Below the pieces are notes generated by a model. It was given only the letters and a program-made list of their open reading frames with translations. It searched no databases and was not told the DNA's origin. 64,000 nt of DNA from Candidatus Levybacteria bacterium RIFCSPLOWO2_02_FULL_37_18 (GTDB lineage Bacteria > Patescibacteriota > Microgenomatia > Levybacterales > UBA12049), in the NCBI GenBank assembly GCA_001784115.1, contig MFPD01000009.1:7520-71519 (forward strand), written 5' to 3'. Of the stretch, positions 7,060 to 46,547 are shown piece after piece. The position numbers were made by a program, and so were the translations under genes. The number at the start of each line of letters is the position of its first letter. Position 1 is the stretch's first letter.

Positions 7060-7120
7060 ACGTATAGTGAGAGGTATTATATAGAATCAAGGAAAATACT
7101 CAAGACTAAATTCAAAATGC

Positions 7121-7235
7121 TGGCCCTGACCCATTGTCCCCCGAGTCAGACTCGGAGTATCGTAGGCGCTGAGCCGTTTTACTTCTGAGTTCGGAAAGGG
7201 ATCAGGTAGTTCCAACTCGCTCAAAGGACCAGCAA
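7121..7235 (-). rRNA. rrf: 5S rRNA
   Basis: The reverse complement contains CCGAACTCAGAAGTAAAACGGCTCAGCGCC (the classic CCGAACTCAGAAGTGAAACG box). Its ends pair (gctggtcc...ggccagc). It lies directly downstream of the 23S. Confidence 0.7.
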
Positions 7236-7333: not shown

Positions 7334-7535
7334 TGTGTTATGAATAGCTCCTTGAAAGTGAAGAGAAAGGTCCTGCAGTGCAGGATTTGATCTTTATAGA
7401 AAAACTACTCTTTGACCATTAGTACGGGTAGGCTTAACACTTTACAGTGCTTCCACCGCCCGCCTATCAACGTCGTAGTCTACAACGGGTCTCTCCCCCG
7501 ATTAAATCGGGGAACGAGATATTATCTTGAGGTTT

Positions 7536-7566
<31 letters not shown>

Positions 7567-7787
7567 AGTTAGGAATATAGCTACTCAGCGCTGCCCTTGT
7601 AAGGAACAACTGACACACCAGGGATTCCTCCAATCCAGTCCTCTCGTACTAGGATCGGATCCTCTCAAATCTCGAACGGTTATCCAGGATAGAGTCCGAA
7701 CTGATTCACATCGTTCTTAACCCAGCTCGCGTACCGCTTTAACGGGCGAACAGCCCGACCCTTGGAAGCTTCTCCACCTCCAGGATG

Positions 7788-8619
7788 CGATGCACATACT
7801 CTTTTGTTTCCAAAAGTGCAGACTATATCATCACCCCGAGTTACTCTCGGGGGTTGGCATATGATAACTCGTGTATTTTTTTATCTTGAGCTATCTCATC
7901 CGTCAGTTGACGGATTCAGTCGTTACGGGGTCAAGCTCTAGAAGACAGATGACAGAATACAGAAAACCTGCCTACCGACAGGCAGGCAGGACAGATTGCA
8001 GATAAAACAGATCAAAAACAGAAATTCTTAATAGGAGTATGTTTTCCAGTTTTTAATAAATTGCTGAAGTTGTTTAGATTCAATTTTATATCTATCAATC
8101 AGAATGTCACACAGCTTCTGATTAATACGACTAATTCTTTTTGCGAGAATTTTTACTACTTGAACATGAGTAATGAGTTCATCTGATGTTCCCATTGCTA
8201 TTTCAAGAAAACGCTTAAACTCTTTTTCAGATCTTTTTTTGCCAAATCCTTCAGCAATATGCGCTGGAATTGATTCTCCGCATTCGATTAGTTGACCTTT
8301 TAGTTTTCTATGACTCTCTGGAATTTGATTTGCTAAGTCATAAACTAGTGGCAATGCTTCCAAAGCATTCTTGTAAACTTGAAGATCTGTTACCTCTCGA
8401 ATCATGAGAATAGCGTATCATACTTCCGTACTTTCTGTTCTATCCGTTATCCGTCTTCTGTTCTCTGTCATCCGTCCTCAAAAACCGACTTCCCACGGTA
8501 TTGTCCATTGACTTTATCATAACTAGAGAAGATTCATTTAGTCAAGAGGAGTTCACCGTTATTAGCCAAATTTGCTTCAATAATTACTTATTGAAGGGCC
8601 CAAACGCTATTTGCGTTTT
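7788..8619 (-). mobile_element. group I intron-like insertion in 23S (832 nt) carrying a four-helix-bundle ORF
   Basis: Flanking exons read GATGTCGGCT | ... | CATCCTGGAGG, which matches E. coli 23S GTCGGCTC|ATCACATCCTGGGG. A group I S-element-like motif GATGATATAGTCTGC lies ~60 nt from the 3' boundary. Long ACAGAA-word inverted arms flank the ORF (7940-8000 and 8420-8480). Confidence 0.5.
8028..8405 (-). CDS. four-helix-bundle protein (TIGR02436, 23S rRNA intervening-sequence protein family)
   Basis: 125 aa with EALPLVYDLANQIPESHRKLKGQLIECGESIPAHIAEGFGKK...FKRFLEIAMGTSDEL, a family signature. It is encoded inside the 23S insertion. Confidence 0.7.
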   Translation of the reverse strand: MIREVTDLQVYKNALEALPLVYDLANQIPESHRKLKGQLIECGESIPAHIAEGFGKKRSEKEFKRFLEIAMGTSDELITHVQVVKILAKRISRINQKLCDILIDRYKIESKQLQQFIKNWKTYSY

Positions 8620-8867
8620 AGCCGACATCGAGGTGCCAAACCGCCACGTCGCTGTGAACGCTTGGTGGCGATTAGCCTGTTATCCCCGGGGTAGCTTATA
8701 TCCGTTAAGCTCCGTCGCTACCACTAGCGTGCGGAGGATCACTAACACCTGCTTTCGCATCTGCTCGACTTGTAGGTCTCGCAGTTAAGCTGGCTTATGC
8801 GTTTGCGCTATCAGTCCGATTTCCATCCGGACTTAGCCAACCTTTGTACAACTCCGTTGCAATGTAG

Positions 8868-9692
8868 GCAATATTGTTAAGAAAGTTAATCTAATTTGTA
8901 AAGAAAAGAAGTAACAATAAACGGAGATATCAACTTCTTTAGTCTACTAAAAGATGAGGCACGAATATAAATTTCTATACCATCAATTTGCCGTCTTGGA
9001 ATTGCTTCCAATCCAAACTTTTCTTTTAAAACCTGACAAAGAAGAGTAACCTCTTCGATGGTAAAATTATGAGTACATATCAATTTCCCCCAACACTCTT
9101 TTGATTTATACGATCCATCATCCATAAACCAGATAGCGAGTCCCAATTCTGTTAAAAGTTCATTTATATTTTTGGGTATTATCTTGGTTTTTGCTTGATA
9201 GAACAATTCTCTAAAGACAAGAAAGTCGGACAAGCTTAAAGTAGTGAAACCAAAACGCTCAAAGTTACCTCATCGGCATTTTTAATGCTATATTCTACTT
9301 TTAGTCTTGCTGACTTTCTATTTGGAGAAAGCTCGATATGACCATCTCCTAGAATAAGACCCACTAATACTTCCTTTTGTAAATTAGAAAGTTTTAGAGT
9401 CTTTTTATATTCTTCTAAGAGGGTTTGCCTCATCCTAGACACTTTCTATCCGAGCATTTCTGTCGGATTCTCATAGTCGCCTATGAGTTCAGACCATATC
9501 ATACTCTAGTATTAGAGCCCAACATATAGTCGTTGAGGGATCCTGCGCATTTAGCTGAAGGACTTCCCTGCTGATTAACTGCACCAGAAAGATTATCACT
9601 TCTATTTTATCAGAAGTACTTCTGGATACACCAGTTGTTCCAGCATATAGTTGGTTTGCAAATAGGAATTACTTCCTAATGGACCCATAATT
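8868..9692 (-). mobile_element. group I intron in 23S domain IV/V carrying a LAGLIDADG homing-endonuclease gene
   Basis: The 23S sequence is interrupted between GGGGAGGTTGACTCAA and CCTACATTGCAACGGAGTTGTACAAAGGTTGGCTAAGTCC. An S-element-like motif GTATGATATGGTCTGAAC sits at 9478-9495. The ORF lies in the 3' part. Confidence 0.55.
8886..9442 (-). pseudogene. LAGLIDADG homing endonuclease split into two ORFs (68 aa + 115 aa) by a TAA stop and a 1-nt frame change at 9233-9238
   Basis: Motif 1 LVGLILGDGHIE lies in ORF 9236-9442 and motif 2 LAIWFMDDGSYK in ORF 8886-9233. The two frames differ by one base. Confidence 0.7.
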
Positions 9693-9800
9693 GAGTCAAC
9701 CTCCCCAGTTAAACTGCCCGCCAGACACTGTCCCTTCGCCGGATTTTTATGCGGCAAAAAAGTAATGATTGCTCATTTCAAAGAGAGGTATTTCACTTTT

Positions 9801-9968
9801 GCTTGCACGAAGCAAAAGAAAATCCTAATTTCAAAATCCTAAATCCTAAATAAATTACACTTTCAAAAATCCAAATTTACAAACGTTTTAGAATTTTGAA
9901 CATTGTGATTTTGATATTATTTAGAATTTAGATATTAGTGCTTAGAATTTCCTTGTGCTCCGCACAAG
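9801..9968. repeat. AT-rich ~165-bp intervening-sequence-like insertion in 23S (L1-stalk / H76-78 region), copy 1
   Basis: gcttgcacgaagc...aaaatcctaatttcaaaatcctaaatcctaaataaattacac...atttagaatttagatattag...ccttgtgctccgcacaag. It is closed by hairpins and is almost identical to 11140-11298. Confidence 0.6.
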
Positions 9969-10149
9969 CTCCCTCCTATTCTCAACAGTTAAAATAAACC
10001 CTCAAATGCCAAGCTACAGTAAAGCTCCCGGGGTCTTTTTGTCCATGGATAACTAGGCCGCGTCTTCACAGCCATCTCAATTTCGCCGGGTAACAGATCA
10101 AGACAGTTATTCAGTCGTTCTACCTTTCGTGCGGGTCGGAACTCCAAAA

Positions 10150-10520
10150 GAAATTCAAAATTCAAAGTTCAAAATTGCAATGCAAAATTAAAAATTGAAG
10201 TACGTTTGTTTTTATACTCGATCGCTTTTTCAAGCCTCATAGTCGCCTATGAGTTCGGACTATATCATCCTCCACTTTATGGAATTCTGGCATGTAGTCT
10301 CTGAGGGTTCTCGCCTGAGGCGAGTCTTCCCTGCTGATTGACTCCACCAAACAGATTGTTACTTATCATCCTAGACTTAGATATCAGGATCTAAAGTACT
10401 GTCGGATACAGAGTAATTCCAGCATATAGCCAGATTTTGCACTTTACTTTTGTAGAACTCTTTCTCGACTGTTTTTGTTCTATTCCTAAGTGCTGTATCT
10501 TTCGATACATTCGGGCAAGC
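10150..10520 (-). mobile_element. compact ORF-less group I intron in 23S (1917-1931 region, CCTTGTCGGG...|...AGTTCCGACC)
   Basis: The rRNA motif CCTTGTCGGG (~10530) and AGTTCCGACCCGCACGAAAGG (~10120) are separated by ~370 nt. That stretch contains an R-like CAGAGACTACATGCC and an S-like GATGATATAGTCCGAAC (10255-10270) ~100 nt from the 3' end. Boundaries are approximate. Confidence 0.5.
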
Positions 10521-10562
10521 TTACGTGACCCGCAAACTTTTCGCCCGACAAGGAACTTCGCT

Positions 10563-10942
10563 CGATCAGATTGCCAAATCAATCTAAATGGACTATATCT
10601 TCCCCAGTTTTTATTGGAGTCTGACGTATAGTCTCTGAGGATTCTTAGAACTTTTGAGATTCTTAAAAATTGAGACAGAGAAACATCCTTCTCCATCAAC
10701 AAACCCTACAATCCAATTTGCAGTTCCAAGTCTTTCCTGCTGATTATCTCTACTGGTATCATTGTCACTTGGTGAACTCATCTATAATTCTAAGTTACCA
10801 TAGTAGATCCAGAATTGCAAGACTTTCCAGCATATGGTCAGATTTTCATTTTCATGCCTCGGCTAGACATGGGAAATGGAGGATTCTTCCACCAAATGGC
10901 GGACATACCTCACTATGGCAGCGGAGTTTTCTTTCAAACTCT
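10563..10942 (-). mobile_element. compact ORF-less group I intron in 23S, inserted at GGU|AGCGAAGUUCC
   Basis: Joining the 5' exon ...AACTGTTCTATGGT (ending in U) to the 3' exon AGCGAAGTTCCTTGTCGGG restores the conserved CTAAGGTAGCGAAATTCC. The intron ends in G (gatcg). It has an R-like CCTCAGAGACTATACG and an S-like GGAAGATATAGTCC (10590-10603). Confidence 0.55.
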
Positions 10943-11139
10943 ACCATAGAACAGTTATAGTTACTGCTGCCGTTCACTGGAGCTTTCGCCGCGAGCCTCC
11001 CCCTTGCGAGGGTCACCCACAACGATTAACTTACCAGCACTGGGCAGGTGTCAGCCCCTATACGTTAGCTTTCGCTTTTGCAGAGACCTATGTTTTAGAT
11101 AAACAGTCGCTAAATAAACTTTTGCTGTGGCCTCGCGCG

Positions 11140-11298
11140 GAACGCAAGAAAATCCTAATTTCAAAATCATAAATCCTAAATAAATTACACTTTCAAAAAT
11201 CCAAATTTACAAACGTTTTAGAATTTTGAACATTGTAATTTTGATATTATTTAGAATTTAGATATTAGTGCTTAGAATTTCCTTGTGCTCCGCACAAG
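11140..11298. repeat. AT-rich ~160-bp intervening-sequence-like insertion in 23S (helix 63 variable region), copy 2
   Basis: Near-identical to 9801-9968 and also preceded by CCTTGTGCGGAGCACAAGG on the rRNA-sense strand. The flanks match the E. coli ACTTCGGGAGAAGG...CTGTTTATTAAAAACA region. Confidence 0.6.
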
Positions 11299-11962
11299 GC
11301 AGGGCATCTCCCAAAGGTTACGCCCAGTTTTTTTGCCGAGTTCCTTGATCTGCTGTCTCCCGGTCGCCTTAGTCTTCTCGACCAACCCACCTGTGTCGGT
11401 TTACGGTACGGAATAAAAGAACACTCCTCACGAATCTTTTCTCGCGGACTGAAAGCTTAGAATGTTGTCCCCGCGTTTGACGCGGGAACTTCCCATCGCC
11501 ACTCAGTTAGACACTCTGACGGATTTTCCAATCAAAACTACTTTGTAACTTGGTGTCGCATATAGCGGCAAATCCTCTTCCACTCTGGTCAATCCTTGAG
11601 TTATAACGCATTCTCTTATGTAGTCGAATATCAACGACTTGTCCATCGGGTTACCCCGAGATTAGCTCGGAACACCCTTAGGGCCGACTCACCCTCCGCT
11701 GACTTACAGTGCGGAGGAAACCTTGGGTTTTCGGCGTCCCGGTTTCTCACCGGGATCTCGCTACTCATACCGGCATTCTCACTTCGTATCGCTCCACCAT
11801 GCCTTACAACACAGCTTCGCGGCAATACGAACGCTCCCCTACCGTCCGCCAAAGGCGGACCTCCATCTTCGGCAAAAGGCTTAATCCTCGTTACATTTTC
11901 GGCGCTACAAACCTGCCACGTTAGACGTGGACATCCTCCAGTGAGCTGTTACGCTTTCTTTA

Positions 11963-11993
<31 letters not shown>

Positions 11994-12226
11994 TTGTCTC
12001 TGGATTGTAACTTCCTTCAAAACTTAGCCTTTATTTAGAGGCCTTAGATGGGAGTCTGGGCTGTTTCCCTTTTGACTGATCAGCTTAGCCCGACCAGCCT
12101 GACTAGAACGAATATAATCTAGTATTCGGAGTTTGATTGGTTACGACAGCTTGCGCCGCCGAAGACCATTCAGTGCTCTACCCCTAGATCATTGTATCGT
12201 CCCGCTATACCAAAATATATTTCGGG

Positions 12227-12258
<32 letters not shown>

Positions 12259-12489
12259 ATTGCCTCTAACCTCAAGTCATCTCAACCCATTGCTACGGAT
12301 ACGAGTGCGGGCCTTCCCCCGACTTTCATCGGGGTTCACCCTGCTCAAGGTTAGCTCACCCGGTTTCGGGTCTATCCCAATGTACTAAGTAGCTCGGTTA
12401 GAGCTTGCTTTCACTACGCCTCCGCCAGAAACTGGCTTAAGCTTAAACGCACACTAAGATAACTCACCGGTTCATTCTTCAATAGGCAC

Positions 12490-12650
12490 GAGATCACCAG
12501 AGGACAGAAGACAGAATAACGGAAGACGGATATCAGATGACAGAGATACAAAACATCAAGATTTTAATCCTGATCTTCTGTCTTCTGTTTCTCTGCAATC
12601 TGTCCTCTGACTTCTGTACTCTGTCCTCCGGCTCTCTCTGCTTGTCAGCC
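12490..12650. repeat. helix-25-region IVS-like insertion made of ACAGAAGACAGAA / TTCTGTCTTCTGT words forming a long imperfect hairpin
   Basis: gaggacagaagacagaataacggaagacgg...ttctgtcttctgtttctctgcaatctgtcctctg, immediately upstream of the conserved CCCTCACGGTACTAGTTCACTATCGGTC 23S block. Confidence 0.5.
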
Positions 12651-12687
12651 GACAATTTCAGGTCTATTTCATCCCCCTCCCGGGGTG

Positions 12688-12726
<39 letters not shown>

Positions 12727-13364
12727 AGGTCTTGGTATTTAGTCTTGGAACGTGGTCGCCCCAGATTCCCACAGAGTACTTCCTCCATGGTACTTAGGTA
12801 CAAACTATCAGTGTCTTACATTTCGCATACAGGACTTTCACCCTCTATGGTCAGCTATTCCAAGCTGTTCTGCTATATAAAACACCAAATATCGTCTGCC
12901 CTGCAACCCCGAGCTGAGCTCGGTTTAGACTTCTCCCTTTTCGCTCGCCGCTACTTAGGGAATCTCTATGATTTCTTTTCCTCCGGGTACTTAGATGTTT
13001 CAGTTCCCCGGGTACCCTACCAAACACTATTATCAGCCAAAGGCTGAACTTTTATGTTTGGTTCCCGCGTTTGACGCGGTCGATTGCTCGATTCGGAAAC
13101 CGCCGGATTACAGGATTATGACTCCTACCCGACGAGTATCGCCGCCATATGCGTCCTTCCTCGGCCAAAACCTCCTAGGCATCCATTATCGGCATTATGA
13201 GTAGTCTTTTATAAAGACGCTCTACTCCATCCTGATTTCGATACTCAGGATGAAGTCCTTCTCTTCACTTGTCAAGGAGCGAATTGCGATAGCAATTCTC
13301 ATCTCTTTTATGTTTTTGAATAAACTCTCCTCAATACCAGGAGGGCTTGTTCAAAAACATAGGG

Positions 13365-21915: not shown

Positions 21916-24393
21916 TTATATTTTAATCCTTACTCTCTTTAATTGCAATGAGTTTAAGACTACGGAGATAGAACTCATTGCCATAGCAGCTGATGCAAAA
22001 ATCGGGTTCATAAGAATATTAAAAAATGGATACAGTGCGCCCATGGCAACGGGAATAAGGATAATGTTGTATCCAAATGCCCAAAACAGATTAAGTTTTA
22101 TTGTCCACATTGTTTTTTTAGACAACTCAATTGCGGTGGCAACAGATCGCAGATCTTTATTAATTAACGTTATATCTGCCGCCTCAATTGCCACATCTGT
22201 CCCCGTCCCCATTGCAATTCCAACATCTGCTGCTGCCAAAGCCGGAGCGTCATTAATGCCATCACCTATCATCGCAACGACATGTCGTTGCTTGGAATTT
22301 CCAATTTCCAATTTCCAATTTCCAATCATCAAATTTGTTGATTTGTTGATTTGTTGATTTGACATTTGTAATTCTCTAACGATCTTTTCTTTTTCCTGAG
22401 GCAGTACTTCCGCATACACCTTTTCAATCTCCACTTGTTTTGCGATTGCTTCTGCGGTCCTTTTATTATCTCCCGTTATCATAACCGGTTCTATTCTCAT
22501 CTTTTTGAGAACCACTACTGCCTCTTTTGCAGAATCTTTAATTGTATCTGCAACCGCAATTAAACCTGCTAATTCTCCATTTACCCCTAACATCATTACT
22601 GTCTTCCCTTCGTTCTCCAATTCTTCAATCTTCAATCTTAAATCATCAATCTTTAGACTTTCTCTCTCCATCAATTTCCTATTCCCAAACACAACTTTTA
22701 ACTTTGAATTTTGAACTTTTAATTCTCCTTCCACTCCGTGTCCGGGTATGGCTTTAAATTGTGTAATTGGTTGAACTTTTATATTCTGTTCCTCTGCTTT
22801 TCTAATAATTGCTTCCGCTAAGGAATGTTCTGAACCCTTTTCTAGCGACGCAGTAATCTGTAGAATTTGATTAGTTAGTTGGTTAGTTCGTTTATCGTTC
22901 ACAGTAGATTTTTCTTTACTGTGAACTGTGAACTGTGAACTGTGAACTATATCCGTCACCTCTGGTTTCCCCTTAGTCAGCGTCCCTGTCTTATCAAAAA
23001 CCACTGTATTCACTCTATGCACAGTTTCCAAAGCCTCTGCATCTTTAATCAAAATTCCATTTTCTGCTCCTTTACCAGTCCCCACCATAATTGCCGTGGG
23101 AGTGGCTAGTCCCATGGCGCACGGACAGGCAATTATCAAAACCGCAATCATGTTTAAAAGCGCAAACAAAGGCGATCCAAAAATGTACCAAATAACAAAT
23201 GTCAAAATTGCAAGCATAATAACAATTGGAACAAAATACGAAGAAATCAAATCAGCCATCCTCTGGATGGGCGCTTTACTCCCCTGCGCTTCTTCAACCA
23301 GTTTTATTATCTGAGAGAGCATTGTATCTTTCCCAACTTTTGTAGCTTTATATAAAAACGTTCCGGACTTATTTATGGTAGCCCCAATTACCATATCCCC
23401 TTTTGCTTTATCAACAGGAATACTTTCTCCGGTTACCATTGATTCGTCAATTGAAGATTCTCCCTCGATAATCTGCCCATCAACCGGAATCTTCTCCCCC
23501 GGCCGAACCCGAATAACATCTTCCACCACAACTTCTTCGATCGGAATATCAACTTCAGCATACTTCTCGTCATTGCGAGGAATCCCGCAATGGCGGGATG
23601 ACGCGGCAATCCCATCCAATTTTAGAGATTGCTTTGCTCCGCTCGCAGTGACAGACGAGCGAAGCACTCGTGCAGTCCGCGCTTGGAGACCAATCAATTT
23701 TTTTATTGCCTCGGAAGTCCCAGCTTTTGCTTTTGCTTCAAAATATCTTCCCAAAATAATAAGACCAATAATAATTGTGGAGACATCAAAATACGGCTCT
23801 GGTTTTATTCCTATACGCTCGACTATAAATGGAAATAGCGTTACAAATGTTGAATAGAAAAATGCAACGGTTGTTCCCAAAACAACAAGCGTATCCATGT
23901 TCGCGTTTCTATGCCTTATAGCAAGAATTGTTGCCTTATAAAACATAAGACCTGCCCAAAACTGAACAGGAATCGCTAGTATTAGCTGAATATAAAAGTT
24001 TTGGAGAATTTGAGGAGATGTATTCATGATTCCAGGAAAACTCCCCCACACAATAAGCCCTCCTAAAAATAAACTGACAAACACTTTTTGCTTGAGCTTT
24101 TGAAGTTCTTTTTGTTTGTTCTCCGAATCCCCGCTCAGCGGGGCGAAGTGGGATTTTTCTTCCTCAAAATTCGCCTCATATCCAACAGACGAAATCGCTT
24201 TCGCAAGATCTTGTTCTGAAACTTCTGATTCCTGTTGAATCGTAGCTTTTCCGGTTGCCAAATTCACAACCGCACTACTTACTCCTGGAACTTTTTTAAG
24301 TGCCCTTTCTGTCACCCCCACACAACTCGCACAATGCATACCGCGCACTTGAAAAATGCGCTTTGTTAGTTTGTTAGTTCGCTCATCGTTCAT
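21916..24393 (-). CDS. copA: Cu+-exporting P1B-type ATPase carrying about five in-frame palindromic-repeat insertions
   Basis: N-terminal HMA GMHCASC. Conserved motifs: TGES, CPC ([12 protein letters not shown]), [17 protein letters not shown]. Repeat-derived inserts: TNKLT (N-terminus), [92 protein letters not shown]. Confidence 0.9.
23568..23653. repeat. GTCAT-family element inserted in-frame inside copA (between the actuator-domain KTARV and PIEEV motifs)
   Basis: cgtcattgcgaggaatcccgcaatggcgggatgacg...gctcgcagtgaca; translated as [31 protein letters not shown]. Confidence 0.75.
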
Positions 24394-24444
24394 CGTAAGG
24401 AATTTTTTAACGCACTGATCATACGTGCTAATTTATTACATGTT

Positions 24445-24774
24445 TCATAGGCTTTCTTGAATTCTTCTTCTGTTATGTAATTCCTTTATGTAATTCCTTT
24501 TTAAACCAATAGTTAAAATTGCAACGCATTCATAACAAGACCCTCTTGAAAGATCCAAGAAGTGTCTGAAATCCTTTTTAGTTCTACTACTCCCTTCTGC
24601 AATTGCAATATTAAGAACAATTAAAACAACTGCTCTTCTCAACTGGCTAATTAAAGCGAAAATCTCATCTTTTGGCCATTTTTGAGTAAGTAGATAGATC
24701 GTATTAACAAACCCTAGCCCTTCCTGATAAACTCGTAATTTTTCGAATTTAAACATACTGTGAACAGTGAACAA
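24445..24774 (-). CDS. four-helix-bundle protein (TIGR02436 family; a second, non-rRNA copy)
   Basis: KFEKLRVYQEGLGF...ISQLRRAVVLIVLNIAIAEGSSRTKKDFRHFLDLSRGSCYE. The N-terminus MFTVHS is supplied by the GTGAAC word repeat. Confidence 0.6.
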   Translation of the reverse strand: MFTVHSMFKFEKLRVYQEGLGFVNTIYLLTQKWPKDEIFALISQLRRAVVLIVLNIAIAEGSSRTKKDFRHFLDLSRGSCYECVAILTIGLKRNYIKELHNRRRIQESL

Positions 24775-24820
24775 ACTAACTGCGAACTAATAACTAGTCA
24801 CGAATAACTAGAATCCTTTA

Positions 24821-25090
24821 TTATTTCCAACGATTATAAAGCCAAATCGCTGCATACGTTGTTACCCATGTCATTGCACTTATGGTAATAAGTCCCCAAA
24901 TCGCAGAACCCATCGAAATTGCTGTTTTTACCTGAAGGCTCTCTAAGCTTAGGCTATGCACCCATGACTGCGCGATTCCAAACAACAAATCCGGCGCAAC
25001 GTACGAAATTAACAAACAAAGTATATAAAATACCGCTGTAACCGCAGTTACAGCATTTGCAAACGCTTTTGCATTAAGCATGTTTTCCAC
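24821..25090 (-). CDS. small membrane protein, hypothetical
   Basis: two TM helices; motif VAPDLLFGIAQSWVHSL. Confidence 0.45.
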   Translation of the reverse strand: MENMLNAKAFANAVTAVTAVFYILCLLISYVAPDLLFGIAQSWVHSLSLESLQVKTAISMGSAIWGLITISAMTWVTTYAAIWLYNRWK

Positions 25091-45240: not shown

Positions 45241-46311
45241 TTACAATAACCCCAACTGTTTATCCTCCGAAGCCTTCGGCGAAGGAGGACTCTTCTCTTG
45301 TTTCTTGTTACTTGTCTCTTGCTGCTTTGAAACTCGTTTCAAAAGGCTATTGAATCCCAATTCCTCAAAAAACTCCTTTGCCTTATTTACGTCAAAACCT
45401 TTTATATTACACTTTTCTATATCTAACCGAATAGGGGCATCGCAGACAACAGTGGCTAGTTTTTTAGCTAAACTTGCTTGCTCTGTATCGGTTGCCAAAC
45501 GCTCTGAAATTTTGGGAGGCAGTTCTCCTAAGTTTTTATACAGATTTTCAAATGTTTTATATTTCTTAAGCAAATTACTTGCAGTCTTTGGCCCAATGCC
45601 AGCAACCCCAGGATAATTATCCGAAGCATCCCCTACTAGTGCTTTGTAATCTACAATCTGCGAAGGTTTAACTCCATACTTCTCCTCCACCTTCTGCTCA
45701 TCATACAAAACAGTATTTGTTAATCCTACTATTGGCGCTAACACTCGAACATGAGAGTTAACTAGTTGCAACAAATCCCGATCCCCTGAGACAATAATCA
45801 CCTCCAGAGGACTGAGGACAGAGGATGGAAAACTGATAGCAGATAAAACAGAAGAAACAGAATCTGTCTTATCTGTAATTTCTGTTTTTCCGCTGTCTGT
45901 CCTGCCTGCCGGCAGGCAGGTCTTCTGTATTCTGTATTCTGTATTCTGAAAAGCCTGAAAAGCTAATGTCCCAATCAAATCATCCGCCTCATACCCGTCT
46001 AATTCAAAAATCGAAACCCCCATTTTTTCTAAGGCATCGTGAACCAAAATAATCTGGGGCACAAAATCATCTGCCAGTTTTGGCCTGGTTGCGTGATACC
46101 CAACGTACATTTCTTGCCGAAATGTTGGTTTTGCCCTGTCAAAACACACGGCAATGTGCGCTGGTTTTAAGTCTTCGATAATTTTTAAAAACATGGAGAA
46201 AAACCCATAGACGGCGCTTACTACTTCTCCAGATGAACTGGTTAGAGGAGGCAAGGCATGATACGCCCTGTGAAGTATTGCGTTGCCGTCAATTAATATA
46301 AATCTTTCCAT
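45241..46311 (-). CDS. 5'-3' exonuclease (Pol I N-terminal / FEN-like domain only) with a ~130-bp in-frame CAGAATACAGAA / CCTGCCTGCCGGCAGGCAGG insertion
   Basis: MERFILIDGNAILHRAYHAL, ...GYEADDLIGTLA, VSGDRDLLQL. The insert NTEYRIQKTCLPAGRTDSGKTEITDKTDSVSSVLSAISFPSSVLSP is encoded by 45810-45960. The C-terminus ASEDKQLGLL derives from the hairpin cctccgaagccttcggcgaaggagg. Confidence 0.75.
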   Translation of the reverse strand: MERFILIDGNAILHRAYHALPPLTSSSGEVVSAVYGFFSMFLKIIEDLKPAHIAVCFDRAKPTFRQEMYVGYHATRPKLADDFVPQIILVHDALEKMGVSIFELDGYEADDLIGTLAFQAFQNTEYRIQKTCLPAGRTDSGKTEITDKTDSVSSVLSAISFPSSVLSPLEVIIVSGDRDLLQLVNSHVRVLAPIVGLTNTVLYDEQKVEEKYGVKPSQIVDYKALVGDASDNYPGVAGIGPKTASNLLKKYKTFENLYKNLGELPPKISERLATDTEQASLAKKLATVVCDAPIRLDIEKCNIKGFDVNKAKEFFEELGFNSLLKRVSKQQETSNKKQEKSPPSPKASEDKQLGLL

Positions 46312-46547
46312 AAAAGTAAAAGTAATTGTTAAACTGTTTCCGCCTGTCCCGTACATTCGCCCCTTAAGTAGTCGGCGAGGAAATTATATCAGATTTCATA
46401 ATCTATATTCCCCCGAGGAGATCAAAAACGAAATATTGAGCTTTTATCTTGTGGGATAATAGGTCGGATTGCCTTCTTGGATACCTTGGCTTGAATTATA
46501 AGGAGCTTCCTTTTTGATATGAAGATACTGCACCTGCCTGACATAAT

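Follow-up and report, generated by a model that had tools for sequence, protein, structure and literature searches.

The window analysed here is a 64,000-nt stretch of contig MFPD01000009.1 from Candidatus Levybacteria bacterium RIFCSPLOWO2_02_FULL_37_18 (assembly GCA_001784115.1). Its minus strand carries a 23S rRNA gene (approximately 13209..7412, as located with Rfam), with a tRNA gene upstream and a 5S rRNA gene at 7233..7118. In the 3′ functional part of the 23S gene lies the subject of this study, an 827-nt insertion with the anatomy of a group I intron, within which an open reading frame (ORF) for a four-helix-bundle protein is bracketed by two inverted arrays of 7-nt words; this ORF and its arrays are hereafter called the cassette (Table 1). 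Intervening sequences (IVSs) and the S23p proteins, the family to which the ORF product belongs, have been known since about 1990. According to Rfam, the same 23S gene also contains three group I matches, of which two exceed the threshold (10532..10236 and 9703..9470) and one is weaker (10876..10566), and it is further interrupted by a hairpin insertion at Rfam model position ~583 and by a 141-nt hairpin insertion.

Table 1. Features of the insertion, its exons, its cassette and related elements in the window (P, paired region; J, joining region; nt positions of the window).
Feature	Position	Strand	Remarks
Whole group I intron, 827 nt	7793..8619	-	Starts AAAACGC, ends GUAUGUG (terminal G)
23S 5′ exon end, GCACCUCGAUGUCGGCU	8620..8636	-	Read directly; Rfam large-subunit rRNA alignment; GGCU is the exon half of P1
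P1 loop extension (AAACGC/GCGUUU), guide GGCC (8600..8597), P2 hairpin CUUCAAUAA-GUAA-UUAUUGAAG	8575..8619	-	
P3 5′ strand (UUGGC), J3/4, P4 (ACGGU/ACCGU), P5/P5a (UCC/GGA, UUGAC/GUCAA)	8495..8569	-	
P6 (GGG) and P6a (GUC) 5′ strands	8487..8494	-	Base of the cassette-bearing arm
Cassette 5′ arm, purine-rich GACAGAR/GACGGAU heptamers	8406..8486	-	Outer end GAGGACGGAUGACAGAG
Four-helix-bundle ORF, 125 aa (PF05635/TIGR02436, S23p family)	8028..8405	-	pI 9.2
Cassette 3′ arm, pyrimidine-rich YUCUGUC heptamers	7933..8027	-	Outer end UCUGUCAUCUGUCUUCU; complementary to 5′ arm
Terminator-like G+C-rich hairpin CCUGCCUGCC..GGCAGG, then U run	7990..7967	-	Within 3′ arm
Ribozyme 3′ half	7793..7932	-	P6a′/P6′ (GAC CCC) to terminal G
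J6/7 and P7 5′ strand, GUAA-C-GACU	within 7793..7932	-	C bulged
P7.1 (AUCCGUC/GACGGAU), P7.2 (AUAGCUC/GAGUUAU)	within 7793..7932	-	
P3′ (GCCAA), P8 (CCCCGAG/CUCGGGG)	within 7793..7932	-	
J8/7 (UGAUGAUAU), P7′ (AGUCU), P9 (CUUUUG/CAAAAG)	within 7793..7932	-	
23S 3′ exon start, CAUCGCAUCCUGGAGGU	7776..7792	-	C2512 onward; read directly
ORF-less GACAGAR-heptamer hairpin	12494..12632	-	23S hairpin loop, Rfam model position ~583
Second ORF-less arm copy, with CCUGCCUGCC..GGCAGG hairpin	45805..45948	+	In frame within 5′-3′ exonuclease gene, opposite strand
Distant PF05635 paralog	24445..24774	-	E 6.6e-24; adjoins P-type ATPase with HMA domain (copper-type)

The boundaries of the insertion were set by the continuity of its exons with intron-free 23S genes and by four sister introns that occupy the identical site. 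On the minus strand, the 5′ exon reads ...GGCACCUCGAUGUCGGCU, the insertion follows from 8619 to 7793, and 23S sequence resumes with CAUCGCAUCCUGGAGG from 7792. An original prediction, made from the letters of the sequence, had placed an 832-nt insertion at 7788-8619; the insertion is there, but it is five nucleotides shorter, since a start at 7788 takes in five bases of the exon. The site lies between what we take to be U2511 and C2512 of helix 90 in Escherichia coli numbering, which was anchored, for the U2511 site only, on the modified bases Cm2498, ho5C2501, m2A2503 and psi2504. A conserved strand of the peptidyl-transferase region is indeed interrupted, as had been proposed, but its description as universally conserved fails at base 2512: in many Gemmatimonadota, some Dehalococcoidia and other taxa U replaces C, often together with G at 2513 (GGCU-UAUCAC or GGCU-UGUCAC), so that the stretch varies at the very base beside the insertion site. 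The same arrangement is present in six independent assemblies (L001-L006), with a spacing of 864 nt in each, and the identical ORF protein is encoded on 22 contigs, including GCA_001782355.1, GCA_001782445.1 and an aquifer scaffold named “ANAN16.” Such an identical layout and spacing in six assemblies argues against a chimeric assembly.

Group I anatomy of the insertion

Both ends of the insertion can be read as group I splice sites. At the 5′ splice site, the preceding U makes a wobble U.G pair with the guide in P1, where exon GGCU faces guide GGCC, and the guide tracks the exon from one intron to another, being GGCC for GGCU in the 23S gene and GCGG for CCGU in the related 16S introns presented below. 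At the other end, the terminal intron base is a G (GUAUGUG precedes CAUCGC), as it is in all nine sister introns.

The core helices were compared in a MAFFT alignment of nine ORF-less introns in which P3 and P7 were written as a pseudoknot. Across P3, P4, P6, P6a, P7 and P9, 98.4% of the cells are paired in these nine introns (85% in shuffles), double-sided changes occur in 13 of the 27 core pairs, and the covariation score of 0.471, against 0.188, was reached by none of 500 shuffles. Double changes affect four of the five pairs of P3; a pair of P4 turns from A-U into U-A in three of the four 16S introns; P6a reads GUC/GAC, GUU/AAC, GUA/UAC or GCU/AGC; and P2 covaries across the sister introns as well. 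In P7, where A-(C)-GACU pairs with AGUCU, the pair beside the bulged base changes from A-U to G-C among the introns, and the adjoining G-C pair is invariant in all nine; this invariant pair and the bulge form a putative feature of the guanosine-binding site. Near the 3′ end, the group I S-like motif noticed in the original prediction proved to be real, as UGAUGAUAUAGUCU (7833..7820) is aligned to J8/7-P7′ of the Rfam Intron_gpI model and UGAUGAUAUAGUC matches the J8/7-P7′ consensus.

An unconstrained fold of the entire 827 nt (-258 kcal/mol, z = -11) recovers P2, P4-P5, P6 with the arms, P7.1, P7.2, P8 and P9, the arms being joined in one long stem on P6. The position of P7.1 and P7.2 between P7 and P3′ points to subgroup IA, and hairpins judged by eye to be equivalent are found in the sister introns; the intron is thus suggested to be IA-like, an assignment made solely by the presence of these two hairpins. 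A second ribozyme core, which would make the element a twintron, was considered for a sequence 5′ of the ORF (UUGACU...AGUCAA together with AUGAUAA) that resembles P7 and J8/7, and it was rejected when comparison with one of the sister introns (L057) identified the pairing as P5a. Anatomy and covariation together support the identification of the insertion as a group I intron, from which removal by splicing would follow. As far as sequence can tell, the splicing mechanism proposed in the original prediction is thereby upheld, the P3-P7 pairing on which it was said to depend being present.

The P6 slot and the cassette

Insertions of 839-944 nt with the same core occupy the identical 23S site in four genomes, belonging to Patescibacteria (L012), Saccharibacteria (L060), Niyogibacteria (L108) and, for L057, a bacterial metagenome-assembled genome. 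They were found by searching a single genome of each species for the 5′ exon with a base other than C after it, a scan whose other results were for the most part point variants or chance matches. In 16S rRNA genes, related introns (L134, L137-L141), found via the genomic contexts of ORF homologues, lie either after U1406 or after GCCGU near position ~1070. In all four same-site introns, the loop of P6 contains a LAGLIDADG_2 gene (~195 aa, E 1e-35 to 1e-46) bounded by AAUACCGUGGGAAG (P4′/P6) and CCCCGUAACGACU (P6′/J6-7/P7), and the cassette of the window sits between exactly these two sequences. Similarity to L057 extends on the left up to UUUUGAG, which includes the start codon of the endonuclease gene, and begins again on the right from UUGACCCC. 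From these limits and the shared slot, it is concluded that the cassette has taken the place of an endonuclease gene in P6. In the 125-aa ORF itself, no homing-endonuclease domain (LAGLIDADG, GIY-YIG, HNH, His-Cys or PD-(D/E)XK) was detected, the Pfam search giving PF05635 and one sub-threshold match only.

The two arms of the cassette are inverted repeats at its ends; they pair into a long stem whose loop holds the ORF. The original prediction had described the ORF as bracketed by inverted arms made of ACAGAA words, and the arms were recovered in three ways: a repeat search returned inverted segments of 27 nt with 81% complementarity, the pattern ACAGARRACRGA was counted 18 times in the window (1.9 expected; a count of 18 was reached in none of 100 shuffles), and autocorrelation in the arms is 0.47-0.48 at lag 7 vs. 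~0.3 at other lags. Once paired, the arrays make one long imperfect duplex that lengthens P6. Conserved in intron-borne and in some free-standing copies (L131, L137-L141 and L132/L133; largely in L145), the 17 nt that precede the AUG, UAUGAUACGCUAUUCUC, contain a -10-like TAnnnT after TG. No Shine-Dalgarno sequence is visible before the AUG of the ORF, and this absence and the -10-like element would suit a self-contained, leaderless transcription unit. The terminator-like hairpin of the 3′ arm is common only to an ORF-less copy elsewhere in the window (~45890-45925), being absent from the cassettes of other genomes.

The ORF product matches PF05635 with 63.8 bits (cut-off 33.8; E 1.9e-17) and TIGR02436 with 63.2 bits (cut-off 24; E 2.3e-17), and its AlphaFold2 (AF2) model consists of four helices with a pLDDT of 94.2. 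The best Foldseek match is XCC0516 (2GSC; template modelling (TM) score 0.79-0.87, 28% identity), followed by BT_0352 (2RLD), after which comes Avd (4DWL, and 8UBB, where Avd forms part of the solved ribonucleoprotein of a diversity-generating retroelement, DGR), with a TM score of ~0.7-0.8 to the AF2 model. Membership of the 23S-IVS four-helix-bundle family, as originally proposed, is thus confirmed by the Pfam and NCBIfam matches and by the comparison of the AF2 model with 2GSC. With six homologues, the most distant one excepted, the ratio dN/dS is 0.05-0.14, which points to purifying selection and to a protein that has been maintained, unlike the decaying ORF of Coxiella discussed below. 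Binding to nucleic acid is the most economical guess for what the protein does.

Close homologues of the protein (66-89% identical) are found in the P6 arm of 16S introns (L131, L134, L137-L143), and cassettes with their arms also lie between ordinary protein genes (L007/8, L009, L132/3, L144, L145/6). A single 16S gene (L141, JGI Ga0213870_1004650) holds two introns, at 141-881 and 1329-2080, inserted after GCCGU near ~1070 and after U1406; both have a CCGU 5′ exon and a GCGG guide. Their P6-plus-cassette regions are 99% identical over 544 nt and their cores ~50%. Similarly, three 16S-intron cassettes share 80-81% identity with that of the window (71% for the one of L134), the cores being only 45-59% identical. 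The window itself holds two ORF-less copies of the arms, one in a 23S hairpin loop and one in an exonuclease gene; the former has a lag-7 autocorrelation of 0.52-0.60 as well as word matches, and we take its loop to be that of helix 25, a classical IVS position. Nearly identical cassettes in unrelated introns and copies in such diverse sites show that the cassette moves independently of the intron, as a mobile unit of its own.

The ORF-less copy in the exonuclease gene lies within an ORF of the FEN type (46356..45241, minus strand), whose 5_3_exonuc_N match is split in two and whose product gains ~50 residues (...QNTEYRIQKTCLPAGRTDSGKTEITDKTDSVSSVLSAISFPSSVLSPLEV...) from the hairpin. A metagenome scan with the cassette-intron junction pattern TCTGTCTTCTNAGNTTGACCC returned two chance matches in unrelated genes, which were discarded. 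A viral scan with the arm end AGGACGGATGACAGAG returned eight contigs, none of which has a four-helix-bundle ORF or a matching 3′ arm. In two IMG/VR contigs (L154, 1940-1990; L155, 1300-1350), a run of GACAGAU/GACGGAA/GACAGAG stands directly 5′ of the start of a phage gene, with no four-helix-bundle ORF and no matching inverted arm nearby.

A second copy of the protein family outside the rRNA genes had been predicted inside a copper operon, and it is there, next to the copper-type ATPase gene. The comparison of the two paralogs that had been suggested gives 29% identity and different flanking heptads, namely TAGTTAT/TAGTTCG upstream (24775-24840) and GAACTAA/CAAACTAA downstream (24350-24395), the downstream words being the first codons of the ATPase ORF (24393..21916). 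A peptide similar to the one encoded by these first codons recurs inside the ATPase, which suggests in-frame repeat insertions. The paralog is frameshifted by a 13-nt tandem duplication (24499..24474, AAGGAATTACATA twice); once one copy is removed, it can be read at full length to ...ALKNSLR, and its stop codon then overlaps the start codon of the ATPase gene (ATGA; region 24390-24445).

Within the 23S gene, the neighbouring group I intron at 9703..9470 (Rfam 51.6 bits) has a LAGLIDADG_2 gene placed 3′ of its core (8847-9689, minus strand). This gene is broken, as one frame ends with ...VSLL and a stop codon, and a 115-aa ORF with a TTG start (9233..8886) covers only the C-terminal half of the LAGLIDADG_2 domain. 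The 141-nt hairpin (~9820-9960, minus strand) is built of other 7-nt words, AAAUUCU/UUUAGGA, and AAUUUUG-type words form a run close to the end of an intron (~10150-10200, minus strand); hairpins made of heptamers seem to characterize this genome in general.

Origin of the arrangement and competing explanations

We consider it very probable that the 23S gene harbors two nested selfish elements, a group I intron as the outer one and an IVS-type cassette in P6 as the inner one. After transcription, the intron would fold into its P1-P9 core, use the U.G pair of P1 and the terminal G, and leave with ligation of the exons; the ligated junction, GAUGUCGGCU-CAUCGCAUCC, would restore helix 90 beside the peptidyl-transferase center. 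The arrays of the cassette would pair and thereby lengthen P6. Being a hairpin itself, the cassette would fit into any tolerant RNA hairpin loop and leave the fold of the host RNA undisturbed. RNase III may cut the duplex of the arms, as it does in classical IVSs, and so release the ORF from the intron; alternatively, the ORF could be transcribed as a leaderless message from the -10-like element before its AUG. The basic, Avd-like protein would then bind nucleic acid, possibly its own heptamer arrays, and the spread of the cassette between introns might proceed by recombination across the conserved P4′/P6 and P6′/J6-7 sequences.

Several points weigh against this nested arrangement or parts of it. 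The covariation set consists of nine sequences only, and the helices were first located by eye; when the partner columns of the nine-intron alignment are slid, pairing falls to 34-39%, a comparison in which the structure string, taken from the window sequence, holds an advantage over the slid controls. The Rfam Intron_gpI model (RF00028), proposed from the outset as a check, aligns well with P8, J8/7, P7′ and P9 only, and its score of 26.6 bits (E 1.4e-4 in an 871-nt search) stays below the gathering score of 50. At the gathering score, the model has no match either in L012, L057, L060, L108, L134 or L137-L143. The low score is most likely due to the 550-700-nt cargo that splits the core and to the P7.1/P7.2 insert. 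Besides, the terminator-like hairpin has the sense orientation inside an essential rRNA gene, a promoter scan called no site at the -10-like stretch, and the cassette encodes no nuclease or recombinase. Finally, the homologous ORF of Coxiella burnetii is decaying and apparently unexpressed (PMC4990558), which indicates that a function of the protein is not universal.

An explanation that we find improbable, yet the best of the alternatives, holds that the protein is a helper specific to its intron, either as a maturase or RNA chaperone or as a stand-in for the endonuclease in mobility. The ORF does occupy the slot that holds endonuclease or maturase genes in the sister introns, it is under purifying selection, and the protein is basic (pI 9.2) and similar to Avd, a component of a solved DGR ribonucleoprotein. 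However, proteins 66-85% identical to it are encoded with the same arms in intergenic DNA, and a 31.6% identical homologue with the same arm ends resides in a helix-45 IVS with no intron nearby, so that the function of the protein cannot be tied to this intron; the Pfam search, moreover, gave no nuclease motif.

There is only a slim chance that the intron has been inactive since the cassette replaced the endonuclease gene, which would make this 23S copy non-functional or poorly functional. All core helices of the intron are intact, the exons are well conserved in sequence, the window shows a single 23S gene and the arrangement is unchanged in the six assemblies, even though the gene is much interrupted (by two hairpin insertions, by a LAGLIDADG ORF that is broken and by three additional group I matches) and a terminator-like hairpin lies inside the intron. 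Indeed, genomes of the candidate phyla radiation (CPR) usually have a single rRNA copy with many insertions (PMC11270868).

The least credible explanation takes all 827 nt as a classical IVS, which RNase III would excise with no religation so that the 23S rRNA is left fragmented in helix 90. In its favor are the ORF family and the heptamer arms, both typical of IVSs, the length of the duplex arms and the sub-threshold score of the Rfam group I model. Against it, the arms are paired with one another and not with the ends of the element; the ~130 nt that flank them on either side make up a covarying group I core with a U.G site, an exon-matched guide and a terminal G; the sister elements at the same site carry LAGLIDADG genes and no IVS arms; and the insertion interrupts one strand of a core helix rather than a hairpin loop.

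Beyond the two nested elements, it is possible, if on balance doubtful, that PF05635 genes in general are the cargo of a widespread and undescribed hairpin-shaped mobile cassette composed of an array of 7-nt words, a gene and a complementary array. The GACAGAR ends shared by CPR bacteria, Azospirillum and Coxiella, the use of other words elsewhere, the recent copying and the purifying selection would all fit such a cassette. If so, the classical rRNA IVSs would be just those cassettes that had inserted into hairpin loops of rRNA, and the same element would also colonize ribozyme loops, where it displaces endonuclease genes, and intergenic DNA, and would enter protein genes in ORF-less form. 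A ring-forming, Avd-like protein would then recognize its own heptamer arrays, as RNA or DNA, for processing, regulation or movement. The origin and spread of IVSs and the role of S23p have long been unexplained, and a tractable system is provided by this locus together with its relatives, with arm ends that stay conserved from phylum to phylum and a protein whose identity has dropped to ~30%. The purifying selection, recent movement and conserved ends make recognition of the heptamers by the protein and processing by RNase III testable. The locus also shows that a different selfish element can occupy the place of the endonuclease gene in a group I intron.

Comparison with known systems

Some introns of subgroup IA, such as that of the td gene of phage T4, loop an ORF out of P6; in these, P7.1 and P7.2 separate P7 from P3′. 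The intron of the window shares P7.1/P7.2 and the ORF in the P6 arm with the td intron; it differs in that its host is a CPR rRNA gene and its cargo is not a homing endonuclease gene. Rickettsia palindromic elements are hairpin repeats that lie in frame within protein genes, and the ORF-less copy at 45805-45948 is likewise read through in frame in the exonuclease gene. The two have no sequence relation, however, and here the hairpin is a stripped-down form of a coding cassette.

PF05635 is a Pfam family that resembles Avd (PMC10053308). The protein of the window has the four-helix-bundle fold of Avd and is basic like it, but the two are only 11-13% identical. A DGR was considered and rejected, as no reverse transcriptase is encoded by the 25 large ORFs scanned in the window and no template or variable repeats were seen; the protein is a relative of Avd by fold and not part of a DGR.

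The rRNA genes found in CPR bacteria, typically present in one copy, are rich in insertions, and they contain group I introns that code for LAGLIDADG homing endonucleases (Tsurumaki et al., 2024, who cite an earlier CPR study; PMC11270868). The intron of the window agrees with these in host clade, in the kind of ribozyme and in its location in the 3′ functional part of the 23S gene; it departs from them in its cargo, an IVS-type cassette with inverted heptamer arms of its own. In Table S3 of the same survey, PF05635 ORFs are listed in insertions classed as group I (3 in 16S and 2 in 23S genes) and in insertions that match no intron model (15 in 16S and 2 in 23S genes). The co-occurrence of PF05635 ORFs with group I insertions in CPR bacteria is therefore already catalogued, although the survey gives no anatomy of these cases. 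Since Rfam, on which the survey relied, misses the present intron family at its gathering score, the survey's “non-intron” PF05635 insertions, in particular the 15 in 16S genes, may belong to this family. Under-detection of one CPR intron family by the standard Rfam model would thus affect published counts of “non-intron” rRNA insertions. Descriptions of the nesting, of the replacement of an endonuclease gene, of the mobility of the cassette and of its identity with IVSs were not found in the literature.

As for the heptamer arrays, a literature search for such an architecture around PF05635 genes in general gave only a note on Coxiella burnetii, in which the helix-45 IVS has GACAGAT/GACAGAA heptamers before the S23p ORF and a 28-bp stem that is cut by RNase III (PMC4990558). 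Arrays of other words are present around PF05635 genes of cyanobacterial plasmids (L147, L148, L151), where inverted arrays consist of GGGAACA/TGTTCCC in Nostoc, GGGAARA/TYTTCCC in Geminocystis and GGGTGTR/YACACCC in N. punctiforme; one PF05635 gene of Calothrix (L150) has no such arrays. A search of plasmids with tblastn identified a PF05635-type ORF, 31.6% identical to that of the window, in the helix-45 IVS of Azospirillum lipoferum 4B (L149, plasmid AZO_p2). The arms of this IVS begin with GAGGACGGAUGACAGAG and end with UCUGUCAUCCGUCUUCU; these are the ends found in the window, the first 17 nt being identical, and its words GACAGAG/GACGGAU are also those of the window.

The cassette therefore has much in common with classical IVSs: the protein family, an inverted-repeat stem with the ORF in its loop, the heptamer word GACAGA(T/A/G) and, for the ORF-less copy at 12632..12494, a location in an rRNA hairpin loop of this very 23S gene. 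On the other hand, its ORF is under purifying selection, whereas that of the Coxiella IVS is decaying, and the ORF-bearing copy resides in P6 of a ribozyme and not in a hairpin loop of the rRNA (helix 9, 25 or 45). As a cassette in P6 would leave together with the intron, the mature rRNA need not be fragmented at this site. By its sequence and architecture, the cassette is thus an IVS element, nested in the loop of a ribozyme instead of a loop of the rRNA.

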